From IMG/VR virus record IMGVR_UViG_3300039918_000043, positions 1-53,231 of that record: a stretch of 53,231 nucleotides of DNA. One strand, given 5' to 3'. Below are positions 4,959-46,686 of this stretch, piece after piece. The notes beneath the pieces are model-generated. The model saw only the letters and a program-made list of their open reading frames with translations. It was not told the origin of the DNA and searched no databases. The DNA comes from a virus. Lineage: Duplodnaviria > Caudoviricetes. Position 1 is the stretch's first letter. Every line of letters begins with the position of its first letter. The position numbers and the translations under genes are program-made.

Positions 4959-5240
4959 TCAGTGCTCGTCCCGAGTCGAGTCGTCGGCATTGAAGAAGCT
5001 GACGACCGGCACCGCTCGAAGCTGGGGCCTAGCCGCCCTCTCCGCCTGCTCGACCTCGAGCTCGTTGCTCAAATTCTGGGTTAGCGCCGCCCCCACCTGG
5101 CAAAGCCGCTCGACCTCTTGGTCGTCCACCCCAAGCGCCTGCAAGGCGCTAAAGATGCCCGCCACACCCTCCGCGATCTTCCTCGCGCCCTCTAAGCCGG
5201 CCGGCACCGGCGGCGTGCTTCTCTCGTTCATTGCGTTCAC
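4959..5240 (-). CDS. putative SOS-inducible small protein
   Basis: GTG start after GAGGGG; lies downstream of a LexA-box promoter. Confidence 0.65.
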   Translation of the reverse strand: MNAMNERSTPPVPAGLEGARKIAEGVAGIFSALQALGVDDQEVERLCQVGAALTQNLSNELEVEQAERAARPQLRAVPVVSFFNADDSTRDEH

Positions 5241-5322
5241 GTACCCCTCACTTTTCTCGTTTGACCATCCTGCCTGACCGCCGGCGGACCCGCGCAAGTC
5301 CAACCGAACCCCTTTACAACCA

Positions 5323-30037: not shown

Positions 30038-31306
30038 TTATGCGGCCAGGGTGCTGACGCGCGTCTGACGCTTCACGATCGGCCACAGCTTGACGAGCGG
30101 GTATCCGGCCGCATCATTCACGTGGTCATGGCCGGTCGCCTTGTCCGGCTCGCCGTTTTTGTCGTACGGCTGCTGCTCCAGCGCCTCGGTGAAGACCGGG
30201 CACAGATGCGTGTTGACCTTCAGCCGGCGCTCGCCCTTGTCGTTCAGGATCAGCGCGTTCACGGCGTTCACCCGGTCTTTCACGGCCGGGTTCGTCGAAT
30301 TGACGTTGATCAGGAATCCGGCCTGCTTCAGGATCGACAGGTCCGACTCGCTGGCGCTCTTGCTGCTGGTGTTCTGGCCGCTGGCGTCAGGGAAGATCGT
30401 GACCGTGTGGCCCTTGTCCTTGAATCGCTCTTTCAGGATGCGCGCCATCTCAGGGGTATCACGCACGCCGGTTAGCTCGCCCACCGCGCGCGGCTCGCCA
30501 TTGCGCACCACATAGATGACCGCAGCCATTTTGAGCACGTTGAAGTCGAGGCCGCAGACTAGTGGCTCGCGCTCCGCCATCACCTCGTCGGTGTGATTGA
30601 GTTTTCGATCGAAGTTCGGATAGACGTTCCCGCTGGCCAGGTTCACAAACCGGCCTTCGAGGTAAGCGTCGATCAACTGCGGCGGGTAGCTGGCGCGAAG
30701 ACTGTCGATGTAGTCCGGTGGCAAAAACGGATTCGTCCGCGTCGGTGCCTGCACCATCACGTAACCCGGCTGCGGGTCCTTCGCCCACGTCTTGTAGACG
30801 AAGCGAAAACCTTCGGGTGTGGTGTAGACCGCTACACGGTTAAACGGCGCGACAACACCTTTTGGACGCTGCCGATTCCGGGCGATCACCTTCTGCCATG
30901 CAAGCCTGGCGTGGTCTTCCTTAAGCGTGTCGATCTCGTCGACGTGCGCGCGGTACGTTTCGTAGCCAACGATCCGGGCTGGATTGTCCAACGTCCGCAG
31001 CACGAAGTCTGCGCAGCCGCCGGAACTGCAGTAGATGATGTTCTCCTGCTTGTTGTACCGGTACCGAATGCCCATGGTCGACAACTTGTCTTCCATGCGG
31101 GGGGCGAGGATCAGCCGCACCAGGTCATACGTCGGCTCATACAGACCGATCAGCCCGGCGGGCGCCTCCATTGCATCGCGCAGCGCGCAGTTCGCCAGCG
31201 TCTCGGTCTTGCCCGTGCCGAACCCGCCAACCAGCGCCGGGTATTTCGCATCAAGCTGGAAGAACTCAGCCTGAGGCTCCGTCATCGTCATTCTTACGGT
31301 TCGCAC
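30038..31306 (-). CDS. terL: terminase large subunit
   Basis: Walker A GGFGTGKT, Walker B HVDE, nuclease GLDFN and DHVNDA. Confidence 0.95.
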   Translation of the reverse strand: MRTVRMTMTEPQAEFFQLDAKYPALVGGFGTGKTETLANCALRDAMEAPAGLIGLYEPTYDLVRLILAPRMEDKLSTMGIRYRYNKQENIIYCSSGGCADFVLRTLDNPARIVGYETYRAHVDEIDTLKEDHARLAWQKVIARNRQRPKGVVAPFNRVAVYTTPEGFRFVYKTWAKDPQPGYVMVQAPTRTNPFLPPDYIDSLRASYPPQLIDAYLEGRFVNLASGNVYPNFDRKLNHTDEVMAEREPLVCGLDFNVLKMAAVIYVVRNGEPRAVGELTGVRDTPEMARILKERFKDKGHTVTIFPDASGQNTSSKSASESDLSILKQAGFLINVNSTNPAVKDRVNAVNALILNDKGERRLKVNTHLCPVFTEALEQQPYDKNGEPDKATGHDHVNDAAGYPLVKLWPIVKRQTRVSTLAA

Positions 31307-31820
31307 TCACGACCTCGATCTCAATGCGGCCGACCGGCGCTTCCGGTGGCGGCTTGTCTGCGTCCTGCAGTTCCTTGCGGGCCAGTTCCAACTTGCGGAT
31401 CAGGTCGATCTGCCTAACGATTAGGTCGCCGTAGTCCGGCGCCGCGGCCTTGATCTCCTTTTTGTCGTACGGCTGCATTTCCTTCGCAGCGTGGTCGTAC
31501 GCCTCGCCCGTCTTCCGGACGATTTGGAGAGCGCCGTCCACCATGTCCATCAGGTCCATGGAGCCGGCCAGCTTTACATAGCGGTGCAGCTTCACCCGGG
31601 CCAGCCGGATCTCATCGTCGAGGCTGCCAACCTGGGCTCGCTCATAGAGCACCAACTCATCGGGTGACAGCGCGTCCGAGTAGAACCCATGCTTCAGGGC
31701 GTTGGTGTTGCCGGTGTGGGTCTCGGACGCCTTGCCGCCGTGCATTCGGCAACGGCCATTGCCCATCGCTTGTGACTGGCATGGCTGGCCGCTGCGGGTC
31801 TTGGCTCCGCAACGTGCCAT
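31266..31820 (-). CDS. terS: terminase small subunit (HGGxSTG-type)
   Basis: CGAKTRSGQPC...GRCRMHGG...GNTNALKHGFY. Confidence 0.88.
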   Translation of the reverse strand: MARCGAKTRSGQPCQSQAMGNGRCRMHGGKASETHTGNTNALKHGFYSDALSPDELVLYERAQVGSLDDEIRLARVKLHRYVKLAGSMDLMDMVDGALQIVRKTGEAYDHAAKEMQPYDKKEIKAAAPDYGDLIVRQIDLIRKLELARKELQDADKPPPEAPVGRIEIEVVSANRKNDDDGASG

Positions 31821-31890
31821 AGGGATGCCTCACAGGGATTGCATGGGGTGTTTTCTCAGGCCGCCCATGCGAATGCGTTACGAATCACAT

Positions 31891-31977
31891 TCAACCGTCG
31901 TTGTTCGGCCACAGCGGCACGCCACACATGAGCAACCAGAGGCCGACACAGTAGCCGGCGTAAGTCATTCCCCACAT
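31891..31977 (-). CDS. hydrophobic micro-peptide (28 aa)
   Basis: GAGGT RBS; MWGMTYAGYCVGLWLLMCGVPLWPNNDG. Confidence 0.4.
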   Translation of the reverse strand: MWGMTYAGYCVGLWLLMCGVPLWPNNDG

Positions 31978-32051
31978 GGGCGCACCTCAGGAATAGAAAG
32001 GCCTGCCGAAGCAGGCAATGACGTGTTGCAGCACGCCAGGGAGGAGACAAC

Positions 32052-32126
32052 TGGTTGCGGAAACCCGAATCGAACAGGTGACCTCGGGGTTATGAGCCCC
32101 ACGCTCTACCGCTGAGCTATTCCGCA
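32052..32126 (-). tRNA. tRNA with CAU anticodon (Met, initiator-like anticodon stem)
   Basis: TGCGGAA/TTCCGCA acceptor; GCTC/GAGC D-stem; TGGGG-CTCATAA-CCCCG; TTCGATT T-loop; encoded CCA. Confidence 0.93.
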
Positions 32127-32133
32127 GAAATGT

Positions 32134-32437
32134 TTGAGGGGCCGGCGCGCTGGCGGTCTCGCCGCACCTCGCATCCGGGTAAGTCGTATCCCTCACGTAT
32201 GGCGGCTGGACTCGAACCAGCGACCCCTCTGCAAAATTGGCAACTCGGCTCTAACCGACTGAGCTACGCCATGCGTGAAAGTTGAGGGGCGGTGCGCCAC
32301 GCCGCTATTCTCAAACTGCCGAACTATATTGAGGCAGCCGAGCCATCGACTTCTGCTGTCCCTCACGGCTGGCGACTCCGGGCAGGTGCCACTCTGCTTG
32401 CTCCCGGCATACGTTCCGGGGAATCGCCATGCGTGAA
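32134..32437 (-). repeat. two tandem scaffolded RNA cassettes (156 and 146 nt)
   Basis: Shared TTCACGCATGGCG, CGCCA-NN-CGTGAGGGA and GCCCCTCAA with unrelated inserts. Confidence 0.85.
32192..32279 (-). ncRNA. tRNA-like RNA: intact D and T arms, aberrant anticodon arm, extended acceptor, no CCA
   Basis: TAGCTCAGTCGGTTAGAGC and GCTGG-TTCGAGT-CCAGC; closed by TCACGCATGGCG/CGCCATACGTGA. Confidence 0.8.
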
Positions 32438-32778
32438 GGTCGCCGGGCTTCCACCGGCGCCGCAGTGAAGGCCTTTGGCCCGACCCGCGCTGCTGTGCCC
32501 GCATCCGACTACGCAAGCCCCTGAAGGCCCTGCGCTGCGTGCCGCGAGCTGGCCCGGGCTTGTTCGGCATGCCAGCGACGCCGGATAGGAGTCTCCCCAC
32601 ATTGGCGCCTGGGGAGCCGGGCAAGCCCTACCCGGTCGTGATGGCGCATGCAGCCTCAGGGGAAAGCGGGCAAGCCGTAGGCGGCAAAGTGCGCCCGATC
32701 AACCGGCCTCGCCAGCACTCTCCCGCCTTCTCCTGAGGCTTCTGCAACAGGGCGGAACCCTTGTCACAGAAAAGTTGT

Positions 32779-32807
32779 TTGCCTTTTGCTAATCGTTGCG
32801 CTATAGT
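32779..32807 (+). promoter_or_regulatory. rightward promoter antisense to late leader
   Basis: TTGCCT-17-TATAGT; operator-like site at 32819-32833. Confidence 0.6.
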
Positions 32808-32870
32808 TCGCGCAACCAGCACATGTATTAGCATTGTGCTCACAAATCAACCCGACAAGGAGATTCATCT

Positions 32871-33005
32871 ATGAACAACCGCGAATACACGTCATCCAGC
32901 GCCAGAAGATCGCCGGCGCCAGGGTGCGGGAAAAGAAGAGACTGCGCGCGGCCCCAAGTTACCTGGCGCACGGGTCGCGCGCTAACCGGAAGAGCCCGGG
33001 GGTAA
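32871..33005 (+). CDS. basic micro-ORF (44 aa)
   Basis: AAGGAG RBS downstream of promoter; Arg-rich. Confidence 0.35.
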   Translation: MNNREYTSSSARRSPAPGCGKRRDCARPQVTWRTGRALTGRARG

Positions 33006-45554: not shown

Positions 45555-45675
45555 TTGCTCATCGCTGAGACAACAGCGATTCGGGATTGGCGTCCCGGAA
45601 TTCTCAAGGCGCAACAACAACAAGCCGCGCCGCATCAGCACGCGGCTTTTTTGTTTGCGTACGCTTGGCACCCTA

Positions 45676-45750
45676 TGGCGGGCCGGGCGAGGGGGCCGAA
45701 AGGCCCACCGGTTCCTTGAGTCCGGCACGCCAACCTCGTTCGGTCCGCCA
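45676..45750 (+). ncRNA. c4: C4-type antisense RNA with flanking targets
   Basis: Cloverleaf; single-stranded CCTTGAG (45714) and ACGCCAA (45727) complement CTCAAGG (45603, 45787) and TTGGCGT (45587, 45757). Confidence 0.88.
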
Positions 45751-45795
45751 CCCCGATTGGCGTCGGGAGGGCGGTAACAGACCGCACTCAAGGAA

Positions 45796-46686
45796 ATGCC
45801 ATGCACGCATCGACTCGTCGCGCACCCTCGCGCAATCATTTCGACCTCTTCCGCGCTATCGAATGCGCCCGAGAAGCCAGGTTCGACGTCTCCCACACTA
45901 AGCGTCTTCCTCAGCAGCCGGTTGCTATGGCAGCCCAGCGCCGCTCCATTGGCCGGGGAGCGTGACATGTCGACACTCTCTTTCCGCTTTCACGAAGCAC
46001 ATGACATTCGCGTAGTCATGGTCGATGACGCTCCCTGGTTCGTCGCGTCCGATGTGGCAGCACTGCTCGAATATCGGAACGCACCGGACATGACCCGCAT
46101 GCTGGACGAGGATGAAAAGGATACGCAGATTGTGCGTACCCTTGGCGGGGGCCAAGAAATGACGGTCATTAGCGAGTCCGGCCTCTACTCAGCGGTGCTT
46201 CGCAGCCGCAAGCCCGAAGCTCGGCAGTTCCGCAAATGGGTCACTGCCGAGGTTCTGCCGGCTATCCGCAAGACCGGCCGCTACGAAGTCCAGGCCGCTC
46301 CCGCCCCGCGGAAGATGGGTGCGCCGACGGAATTCCTCGCCCTCCCCTTCGTCGACGTCAACTCCCCTTTCCGATTCTGGTGTCTCCCATTGGAAGGTGA
46401 CTACTTCGCCGGCTACGAGAAAGGGCGTTCCATGGCGCTCGCCTACCTAGCCTTCCTCAGCAACAACACTTCCCGCAAGCCAGACAGCAGTTACGTCGCT
46501 TTGATCCTCGAATCGTTCATGAAGCGATTCCAGTTCATCAACGGAGCCGCCTTCGTTGATGCGCCGATCGACCATGGGCCGATGGACTTCCACATCCTCA
46601 AAGGCCACTACTGCGGTTTCTTCGGCACCCTGGGCCACGCGGCCTGGCTCACAGCCCGCAGCCCTGCCCTAGCTCAACTCCACTGA
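45796..46686 (+). CDS. BRO-N antirepressor-like protein (alternative start 45967)
   Basis: PWFVASDV, ISESGLY, SRKPEARQFRKWVT.EVLPAIRKTG.Y. Confidence 0.92.
   Translation: MPCTHRLVAHPRAIISTSSALSNAPEKPGSTSPTLSVFLSSRLLWQPSAAPLAGERDMSTLSFRFHEAHDIRVVMVDDAPWFVASDVAALLEYRNAPDMTRMLDEDEKDTQIVRTLGGGQEMTVISESGLYSAVLRSRKPEARQFRKWVTAEVLPAIRKTGRYEVQAAPAPRKMGAPTEFLALPFVDVNSPFRFWCLPLEGDYFAGYEKGRSMALAYLAFLSNNTSRKPDSSYVALILESFMKRFQFINGAAFVDAPIDHGPMDFHILKGHYCGFFGTLGHAAWLTARSPALAQLH

Follow-up and report, generated by a model that had tools for sequence, protein, structure and literature searches.

The units and their location

The DNA analysed here (the window, 53,231 nucleotides) comprises positions 1 to 53,231 of IMG/VR record IMGVR_UViG_3300039918_000043 (Caudoviricetes), which is filed as a complete provirus. 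On its minus strand a gene for a CI-like repressor (33870-33439) is followed by small open reading frames (ORFs), by about 0.8 kb free of genes, and then by terS, the gene for the terminase small subunit; scans against PHROGs place the genes for TerL (the large subunit), portal, scaffold and major head proteins beyond it. The best explanation of this region is a temperate phage infecting Burkholderiales, in which a non-coding transcription unit of roughly 0.8 kb, from about 32790 to 31991 on the minus strand, precedes the packaging genes. Two RNA units within it, A and B, are the subject of this report. The RNA to which they belong is undescribed and modular, and adds two new covarying domain families to the structured RNAs that accompany phage tRNAs.

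Direct reading of the sequence reveals a common scaffold in unit A (32439-32283) and unit B (32280-32135), as a first, sequence-only reading of this DNA had proposed. The 5' half of unit A consists of CCUUCACG (32439-32432), CA, UGGCG (32429-32425), a 50-nt insert and CGCCA (32374-32370); its 3' half continues with GC, CGUGAGGG (32367-32360), a 71-nt insert and CCCUCA (32288-32283). Unit B repeats the scheme with UUUCACG (32280-32274), CA, UGGCG (32271-32267), a 62-nt insert and CGCCA (32204-32200), followed by UA, CGUGAGGG (32197-32190), a 49-nt insert and CCCUCA (32140-32135). The sequence-only reading saw here one scaffold holding two inserts, which is too simple a picture. Each unit is built from two abutting closed domains, a rod (P1) and a second domain closed by a helix (H2), and what had passed for a mere second insert belongs to recurrent structured domain types, D3-I (see below) among them. 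The location given for the units, a non-coding stretch upstream of terS, was confirmed by PHROG scans in the window and in its relatives.

The P1 rod of unit A has a lower stem formed by CCUUCACG and CGUGAGGG, a 2x2 internal loop (CA/GC), an upper stem formed by UGGCGAUU and AGUCGCCA, and an apical insert of two hairpins; the rod is present in the minimum free energy (MFE) fold. In the rod of unit B the internal loop has shrunk to a single C.A mismatch. The closest relative of the window among the loci compared (designated L and a number) is L002, whose TerL is 92% identical and which contains the same modules in a different order.

The scaffold recurs beyond chance

Is the shared scaffold more than a fortuitous repeat? 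The exact 15-mer CGCCAGCCGTGAGGG was hit 123 times in the viral contigs that we fetched. CACGNNTGGCG lies at most 160 nt upstream in 11 of these cases, 10 of which also have CCCTCA downstream; among the remaining 112 hits, the 5' motif accompanies none and CCCTCA one. Exact-pattern scans recovered the scaffold in 4 further viral contigs, 4 genome contigs and 30 metagenome contigs, which left about 40 distinct P1 domains after removal of duplicates, every copy being on the late-gene strand. Recurrence of the scaffold is beyond chance. It had been suggested that the scaffold would be conserved and covarying elsewhere, with differing copy number and inserts, and both expectations are borne out: about 40 distinct copies exist whose P1 double changes are matched by none of 500 shuffles, and loci hold one to three units with varying inserts.

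The genome contigs bear the names Paraburkholderia, Noviherbaspirillum, Aquabacterium and Caballeronia. Membership of the Burkholderiales was checked for two of the four genera, and the other two we take to belong there as well. Each of the four bacterial genomes has one scaffold locus, and with strict filters 2 of 150 further genomes of the order gave a match. A blastn search of the region against INPHARED returned tRNAs only and no close cultured phage relative, the best cultured-phage match to TerL being Xanthomonas phage Kintu at 69%; there is consequently no annotation to borrow.

P1 is a covarying RNA family

In the P1 consensus, (C)CYUCACG-CA-UGGCG-AUUG pairs with CAGU-CGCCA-GY-CGUGAGG(G). 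The resulting rod has 7-8 bp below a 2x2 internal loop, 9 bp above it and a variable tip. Across 40 copies, 94.5% of the alignment cells are paired, double changes occur in 10 of 16 pairs, and 0 of 500 shuffles reach any of five measures. This set is biased, most of its members having been fetched by exact pattern, and we therefore built a model, R1, and ran it on independently chosen loci. The 80 loci used for model searches were picked solely because they encode a relative of TerL. R1 matches nine of them at E<=0.05, and every such match precedes TerL on its own strand; two more (L004 and L058) have weaker matches and by eye the same architecture.

Twenty matches found by the model, and thus not selected by pattern, were collected; they come from the TerL-derived loci, from two genomes and from the window itself, and four are weak opposite-strand echoes. 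In their alignment, which was fitted to R1 and for that reason leans toward the structure, 91.6% of cells are paired and double changes affect 13 of 16 pairs, a level that none of 500 shuffles attains; slid controls reach 29-47% pairing. Diverged copies restore pairing by compensatory change: CACG/CGUG has become CAUG/CAUG in L052, L055 and L004, CAGG/CCUG is found in unit 2 of L002, and UUUAG/CUAAA in L058. The internal loop is less constant, being fully paired in unit 2 of L002 and reduced to a single mismatch in L052-type copies as in unit B. R1 recognises both units of the window, at 72.5 and 52.1 bits. The P1 rod domain is a real and new structured RNA family.

At which level does the pairing act? 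G.U pairs are frequent, and the R1 score, 50-80 bits on the late-gene strand, drops to 18-24 on the opposite one; together these facts indicate that the pairing acts in RNA, on the late-gene strand. The same asymmetry makes a DNA-level signal, such as a pac or cos site, a recombination site or an array of operators, unlikely. Such a site might be sought beside terS, and inverted repeats with variable spacers would suit it. The pairing nevertheless tolerates G.U and not the A.C of the other strand, with scores three to four times higher on the late-gene strand; it includes long-range and loop-loop covariation; and it accompanies terminases of at least eight PHROG families. We regard a DNA signal as scarcely credible.

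A second domain closed by helix H2

Downstream of P1, GAGGG pairs with CCCUC to form helix H2, which closes a second domain. Several interior types recur. In the commonest, D3-I, H2 is separated by 2-3 nt from hairpin a, whose loop is GGCUGA; after a variable insert, 5-130 nt long, comes hairpin b (loop AGAUCAGCG), and the 3' strand of this hairpin is directly continuous with that of H2. Loops a and b are complementary to each other and vary in concert: most copies have GCUGAU/AUCAGC, L125 has GCUCA/UGAGC, and GGUGAU/AUCACC is found in L204, L210 and L211, as well as in L230, which is outside the set used for the loop count. By eye, L222 has GCCGAU/AUUGGC, at a place where the script found no hairpin. 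At least five contiguous loop-loop pairs are possible in 19 of 22 copies, compared with 16% of shuffled loops.

The alignment of these 22 copies has 92.6% of cells paired and double changes in 13 of 23 pairs (0 of 500 shuffles). H2 accounts for double changes in six of its seven pairs and occurs as GAGGG(UG)/(CA)CCCUC, GAGAGUG/CACUCUC, GCAGAUG/CAUCUGC, GCGGAUG/CAUCCGC and GGGGUG/CACCCC; the kissing helix is 98.2% paired, with double changes in three of five pairs. A second model, R2, finds D3-I in 12 of the 80 TerL-related loci, seven of them lacking P1, and the union of P1 and D3-I comes to 16 loci. Stand-alone copies of D3-I include those in L045 (1297-1449), L021, L034, L037, L051, L054 and L029 (6588-6736); the variable insert of the L051 copy holds a hairpin resembling a T arm. 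In D3-I a closing helix is followed by a short linker, a first hairpin, a variable middle and a last hairpin stacked on the closing helix, with the loops joined. This topology suggests a tRNA-like layout, with 5-6 Watson-Crick loop-loop pairs where the elbow of a tRNA sits.

The second domains of the window are of other types, likewise closed by H2. That of unit A, a two-hairpin type, is 85% identical to the corresponding domain of unit 2 in L002 and differs from it by one compensatory pair (CUC/GAG to CCC/GGG); an exact 23-mer taken from it was matched only in L002 in the exact-pattern scan. That of unit B is a divergent relative of D3-I retaining ...GCGCCGGCCCCUCA, which R2 does not recognise; in L002 a domain that precedes unit 1 matches it at 94% identity.

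The suggestion that no known family covers the units stood up to comparison with Rfam 15 (4227 models), in which 31800-32900 gave tRNA hits only; the best non-tRNA hit in that interval was Twister-sister at 17.1 bits (threshold 34; E 1.4). No Rfam family matches the P1 units in 16 related loci. For D3-I, no hit at E<=10 is centred on L045 1296-1449, the edge of which is overlapped by a few weak hits, and L045, L085, L162 and L069 contain no match at gathering level.

tRNA-like tips and neighbouring tRNAs

The sequence-only reading described the first insert of unit B as a tRNA cloverleaf. ARAGORN calls the insert and its flanks (32274-32196) tRNA-Gly(gcc), and the Rfam tRNA model RF00005 scores it at 37.8 bits, above the gathering score of 29. 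The cloverleaf is nonetheless crippled. D and T arms are present and a proper anticodon stem is absent; the anticodon arm, 21 nt against 18 in the model, stays unaligned, and positions 1:72 are marked non-canonical in the Rfam alignment. Because the anticodon arm stays unaligned, we class the tip as a tRNA-like pseudo-structure. A nearly identical insert occurs in the metagenome locus L217, and unit A has no match to the Rfam tRNA model. A genuine tRNA was also claimed 7 nt after unit B, and rightly so: tRNA-Met(CAU), a true member by its Rfam tRNA score, begins 7 nt past CCCUCAA, which ends at 32134. This tRNA has three consecutive G-C pairs at the foot of its anticodon stem, as initiators do, and its end pair is U1-A72. 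In the relatives, too, the tRNA most often encountered in the pre-terminase slot is tRNA-Met(CAU).

tRNA genes occupy that slot in 4 of 10 R1-positive and 14 of 70 R1-negative TerL loci. In L005 and L221 tRNAs called by ARAGORN start exactly where H2 would be expected to start, and Rfam confirms those in L221 but not in L005. In unit 1 of L205, by eye, a cloverleaf is closed by H2.

Could the units be mere debris of a decaying tRNA-gene array, that is, functionless remnants of duplicated phage tRNA genes and their paired flanks, with stems that were simply inherited? The recognisable, damaged cloverleaves of unit B and L217, the hairpins resembling T arms in several inserts and the abundance of tRNA genes in the slot would be accounted for. 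However, in diverged copies the pairing of P1, H2, the two D3-I hairpins and the loop-loop helix is maintained by compensatory change, which requires selection on structure and argues against decay. The closing stems moreover persist while their interiors are replaced, and D3-I has no sequence likeness to tRNA. Decay is an improbable explanation.

A further possibility is suggested by the YrlA Y RNAs, in which a stem with an internal loop closes a tRNA-like module and several genes sometimes stand in a row. In a scaffold of this sort the bulged P1 stem would bind a host protein, of the Ro/Rsr type or another, and the tRNA-like tip would be the effector, as in YrlA. A long stem with an internal loop does close a tRNA-like module in unit B, L217, L226 and L207. 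Unlike in YrlA, the internal loop is variable and most tips do not resemble tRNA. No Rfam Y RNA or YrlA model matches at E<=10, and the TROVE domain (PF05731) is found in none of five phage records, the search having covered phage records and not hosts, with control genomes positive. The failure of both the Rfam and the TROVE tests makes a Y-RNA-like particle very improbable.

Alternative pairings of the scaffold

That UGAGGG can pair in two directions, upstream or downstream, had been noted from the sequence, and both partners find backing: the MFE fold of unit A picks the upstream one, and covariation supports the downstream helix H2. CGUGAGGG either joins the 5' CCYUCACG, so that P1 grows to 8-10 bp, or yields its GAGGG to H2. 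The two extra P1 pairs (C-G or U.G) are possible in 40 of 40 copies. In a subfamily typified by L055, three segments (A, B and C) all differ together (CACUUUCAUG / CAUGAGAGUG / CACUCUCA), a change that may stem from one evolutionary event. The competing pairings may represent a switch, a folding pathway or plain slack at a junction. Support for the structure is comparative and not energetic.

The leader block and its setting in related phages

The features of the leader block are collected in Table 1. The inverted repeat at its upstream end is operator-like and probably the operator of a regulator that controls the leader; a promoter-like site on the plus strand (TTGCCT-17-TATAGT, 32779-32807) overlaps it, and the whole block is also kept in L002. 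The leader transcript probably starts just downstream of the repeat. The long stem PU has a counterpart in L002 (GGGGAAGGCGG/CUGCCUUCCCC), seen by reading of the sequence. At the position of hairpin P0, other loci have hairpins with different stem sequences and loops GAAAGA or CGUAA. A TTGACA resembling a -35 element ahead of P0 was dismissed, having no -10 after it. GUCUCCUCC is seen in the window and in L065, L069, L084 and L085, and as the variant GUCUCCUU in L070.

Table 1. Features of the leader block and its surroundings in the window
Feature	Position	Strand	Basis and remarks
Inverted repeat GTTGCGC-N8-GCGCAAC	32795-32816	.	Read directly; perfect 7-bp arms; divergent promoter region upstream of leader
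Long stem PU, CCUCAGGAGAAGGCGGG ... CCCGCUUUCCCCUGAGG	32654-32738	-	Read directly; 5' end of leader
Hairpin P0, CGCCGG-UGGAAGC-CCGGCG	32441-32459	-	Immediately 5' of unit A
Unit A, P1 rod domain	32360-32439	-	Direct reading; R1 72.5 bits on this strand, 17.5 on the other
Unit A, 3' domain (type II, two hairpins, H2-closed)	32283-32364	-	GAGGG 32364-32360 with CCCUC 32288-32284
Unit B, P1 rod domain, tRNA-like cloverleaf tip	32190-32280	-	R1 52.1 bits; direct reading, ARAGORN, Rfam
Unit B, 3' domain (H2-closed)	32135-32194	-	GAGGG 32194-32190 with CCCUC 32140-32136
tRNA-Met (CAU)	32052-32126	-	ARAGORN; Rfam tRNA 65.8 bits
GUCUCCUCC motif	32040-32048	-	Recurs after modules or tRNAs, before terminator, in several loci
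Intrinsic-terminator-like hairpin GCCUGC-UUCG-GCAGGC, then CUUUCUAUUC	31991-32016	-	Closes the non-coding block; U-rich tail
terS, terminase small subunit gene	31266-31820	-	PHROG 1889, E 4.9e-13; first recognisable late gene downstream of units

ORFs that overlap or flank the units (143, 79, 64, 28 and 117 aa) have no Pfam family and were treated as non-coding or of no known function. The one of 28 codons (31891-31977, minus strand), between the leader terminator and terS, would encode a hydrophobic peptide; short hydrophobic ORFs of this kind also flank the RNA in L065 and L069. Elsewhere in the window, an Ant anti-repressor gene (45796-46683, plus strand; PHROG 130) is immediately preceded by a C4 antisense RNA (45671-45755, plus strand; Rfam RF01695, 74.8 bits), the pair forming a secondary immunity module of the P1/P7 type in this prophage.

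Contigs from public sequencing runs cover 32438-32713 and parts of the tRNA. They provide neither ends nor strand and are neutral on expression: the two good holders are DNA contig sets, possibly from the source sample, and the runs labelled as RNA, a label that is doubtful, contain small shares in the form of contigs only. Three runs, of which one is filed as oligo-dT RNA and another as random-primed RNA, include short contigs that match 32438-32713 at about 90-97% identity, and one contig diverges exactly where unit A begins. The upstream leader thus also circulates with other downstream modules.

The genomic context was surveyed in 30 loci fetched by the RNA pattern alone, whose neighbouring ORFs were scanned against PHROGs. 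Downstream ORFs on the same strand (83 scanned) encode terminase large subunits of at least eight PHROG families, TerS and portal proteins; the upstream ORFs (116 scanned) include DnaB, primase, helicase loader, RusA and HNH/YbcO-like families. With early genes before it and terminases after it, the RNA stands where early genes give way to late ones, in phages that have unrelated packaging enzymes. An intrinsic terminator usually closes the modules. A strict scan, which misses some terminators seen by eye (for example in L082, L069 and L070), found in 11 of 35 loci a terminator-like site no more than 800 nt past the modules, and in 4 of 37 one no more than 500 nt ahead of them. The terminator follows closely in the window and in L162, L085, L206 and L215, the latter four reading early genes, unit, terminator, late genes. 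In L045, D3-I comes directly after a strong terminator and ahead of a tRNA, and in L082 the unit is just downstream of a strong terminator. D3-I of L029 resides inside the late operon, after a small ORF and directly before two terminators, in the manner of a moron. The slot also accommodates another RNA, Proteo-phage-1 (Rfam RF03044), in L035 (1935-2012), L041 (1158-1237) and L056 (1369-1447); in L202 it is found at 5219-5296, about 300 nt upstream of a P1 unit.

Do the units control elongation of the transcript that contains them? The P1 and H2 stems might make RNA polymerase resistant to terminators, as put sites do, or load an N- or Q-like protein that we failed to recognise, so that transcripts bearing modules would pass the terminator at 32016-32001 and later ones into the late operon of roughly 30 kb; the choice of CGUGAGGG between two partners, the 5' CCUUCACG and the 3' CCCUCA, could be part of a switch. 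An intrinsic terminator comes directly after the modules, which are on the sense strand, and the late genes lie beyond it; the four loci just listed share this order. No promoter-like site turned up in a scan of the interval between the window's terminator and terS. A lambdoid late leader (PR'-qut-tR') would depend on a Q gene in the phage; Pfam models for Q antiterminators (PF06530 and PF03589) each matched in 0 of 5 records, three of them complete; Q proteins are diverse, so that a miss by two models is weak evidence and does not demonstrate absence. Two adjacent stems with conserved bases and variable tips fit as well, as do the P0 hairpins with their covarying 5-bp stem and constant GAAAGA loop, which are reminiscent of lambda boxB, and the joint change of the A, B and C segments in the L055-type subfamily, although this comes from one subfamily and perhaps a single event.

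Several observations speak against such control. Constancy is what one would expect of an essential cis element, whereas the modules occur in just 16 of 80 related loci, are swapped for others and number one to three. D3-I of L045 and the unit of L082 stand downstream of a strong terminator and hence are not needed to pass it, and the moron-like copy of L029 sits within the late operon. We know of no antiterminator RNA in which tRNA-like or tRNA inserts have a role. Control of elongation in cis is the main rival of the reading that we favour, though on balance doubtful.

Directly upstream of the RNA, L082 (9973-10371) and L085 (3640-4050) encode two similar proteins of 133-137 aa, which are candidates for an unrecognised late regulator. 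As a common protein partner they were rejected: they have no Pfam or PHROG family, and tblastn with them misses the window and most other loci.

The modules as proposed RNA cargo

The reading that we favour, at a probability of roughly 45%, regards the modules as accessory non-coding RNA cargo that is co-transcribed with phage tRNAs and excised as stable, partly tRNA-shaped RNAs acting in trans. Transcription of the modules along with the neighbouring tRNAs would end at the intrinsic terminator. Host RNA-processing enzymes would then excise them: RNase P is a candidate for the tRNA-like junctions, and RNase III or RNase E for cuts in the P1 stalk or next to it. Small, stable RNAs would result and work in trans, and a plausible role for them is that of tRNA mimics, to which a host factor recognising tRNA would bind or be diverted. 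We infer both the processing enzymes and the role as tRNA mimics from sequence and predicted structure.

What favours cargo? Patchy presence, the variable number and order of modules and their exchange for other RNA motifs suit cargo better than an indispensable cis element, and so do the company of tRNAs, the terminator of their own, and the occurrence of modules after terminators and inside a late operon. The findings also show the stretch before terS to be, in these phages, a general slot for RNA cargo.

Other observations weigh against this reading. With no promoter-like site seen between the window's terminator and terS, and no Q-family gene found, a mechanism of read-through is needed, which favours control in cis. 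About 40 P1 inserts are available and two of them (unit B and L217) reach the Rfam tRNA threshold. Strict hairpins of the T-arm type outside called tRNAs number 3 in 28 kb of leader and 3 in 264 kb elsewhere, too few to count. The Rfam tRNA model does not detect D3-I, despite the layout described above. R2 has no match in the window at E<=0.1, its second domains being other types that share just the H2 closure, and exact-pattern scans with both of them matched L002, the closest relative, only. The MFE z-scores are unremarkable, at -0.19 (411-nt block), -1.43 (unit A) and -1.23 (unit B).

A more specific version of the cargo reading, unlikely as it stands, would put the tRNA resemblance at its centre. 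The units would display tRNA-shaped decoys, each closed domain mimicking an acceptor/T-arm minihelix with an elbow, which D3-I would rebuild from its loop-loop helix of 5-6 bp. A cleavable bulged stalk would free the domains late in infection, and a host factor that recognises the tRNA shape would be soaked up or redirected; a defence nuclease that attacks tRNA is one example of such a factor, an enzyme of processing or modification another. Phages would swap modules and so keep pace with their hosts. If this is true, the modules are a new kind of phage counter-measure.

Relation to known systems

A catalogue of 8,495 candidate RNAs from IMG/VR exists (PMC10690425). We found no description of the present RNA in the literature, though the supplementary tables of that paper, which we have not seen, may list it. 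Some other elements were considered by eye and dropped: a hammerhead, whose CUGAUG would fall in a covarying loop; a retron msr/msd, no reverse transcriptase gene being seen nearby; and integron attC sites, type III antitoxin repeats and CRISPR-repeat mimics.

T4 species 1 and 2 RNAs and T5 RNA1 are small non-tRNA RNAs among phage tRNA genes; they have tRNA-like stems, are presumably matured by tRNA-processing enzymes and have no known function. The present modules differ from these in that an extended bulged stalk supports them and one of their domains has kissing loops; no relation in sequence is known.

The put sites of HK022 are single, about 70 nt long and located in early operons; they act in cis between a promoter and the terminators that they suppress, through the RNA itself and the zinc-binding domain of the polymerase beta-prime subunit. 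The likeness to putL and putR lies in two adjacent stem-loops on a nascent phage transcript, upstream of terminators, with no protein antiterminator found. In contrast to put, our units measure 145-160 nt, stand in tandem, have tRNA-like tips, are patchy in distribution and sometimes follow a terminator. Should they prove to be protein-free antiterminators in phages that have no Q, they would extend a mechanism known essentially from HK022.

The Proteo-phage-1 RNA shares the pre-terminase slot and, like the RNA of the window, has no known function; the two differ in sequence and structure, its model has no match in the window, and no paper text on it was found, its source description being in supplements that we have not seen. 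GOLLD and ROOL, the kind on record that comes closest, are described as highly structured RNAs of phages and prophages, often beside tRNA genes, with covarying kissing loops and no known function (bioRxiv 10.1101/2024.12.08.627333; PMC5737381). On that description they resemble the present RNA in being phage- or prophage-borne, near tRNA genes, structured, equipped with kissing loops (here in D3-I) and of unknown function. Neither the window nor any of 16 related loci is hit by their covariance models, and the architecture is different: instead of one fold of 580-800 nt, short interchangeable modules occur in variable number, in phages of Burkholderiales. Two domains backed by covariation and absent from Rfam 15 join GOLLD, ROOL and Proteo-phage-1, the few phage tRNA-associated RNAs, all with functions yet to be assigned. 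The present RNA is short, modular and tractable; its stems, kissing loop and copy number can each be mutated singly in a temperate phage of culturable soil bacteria.

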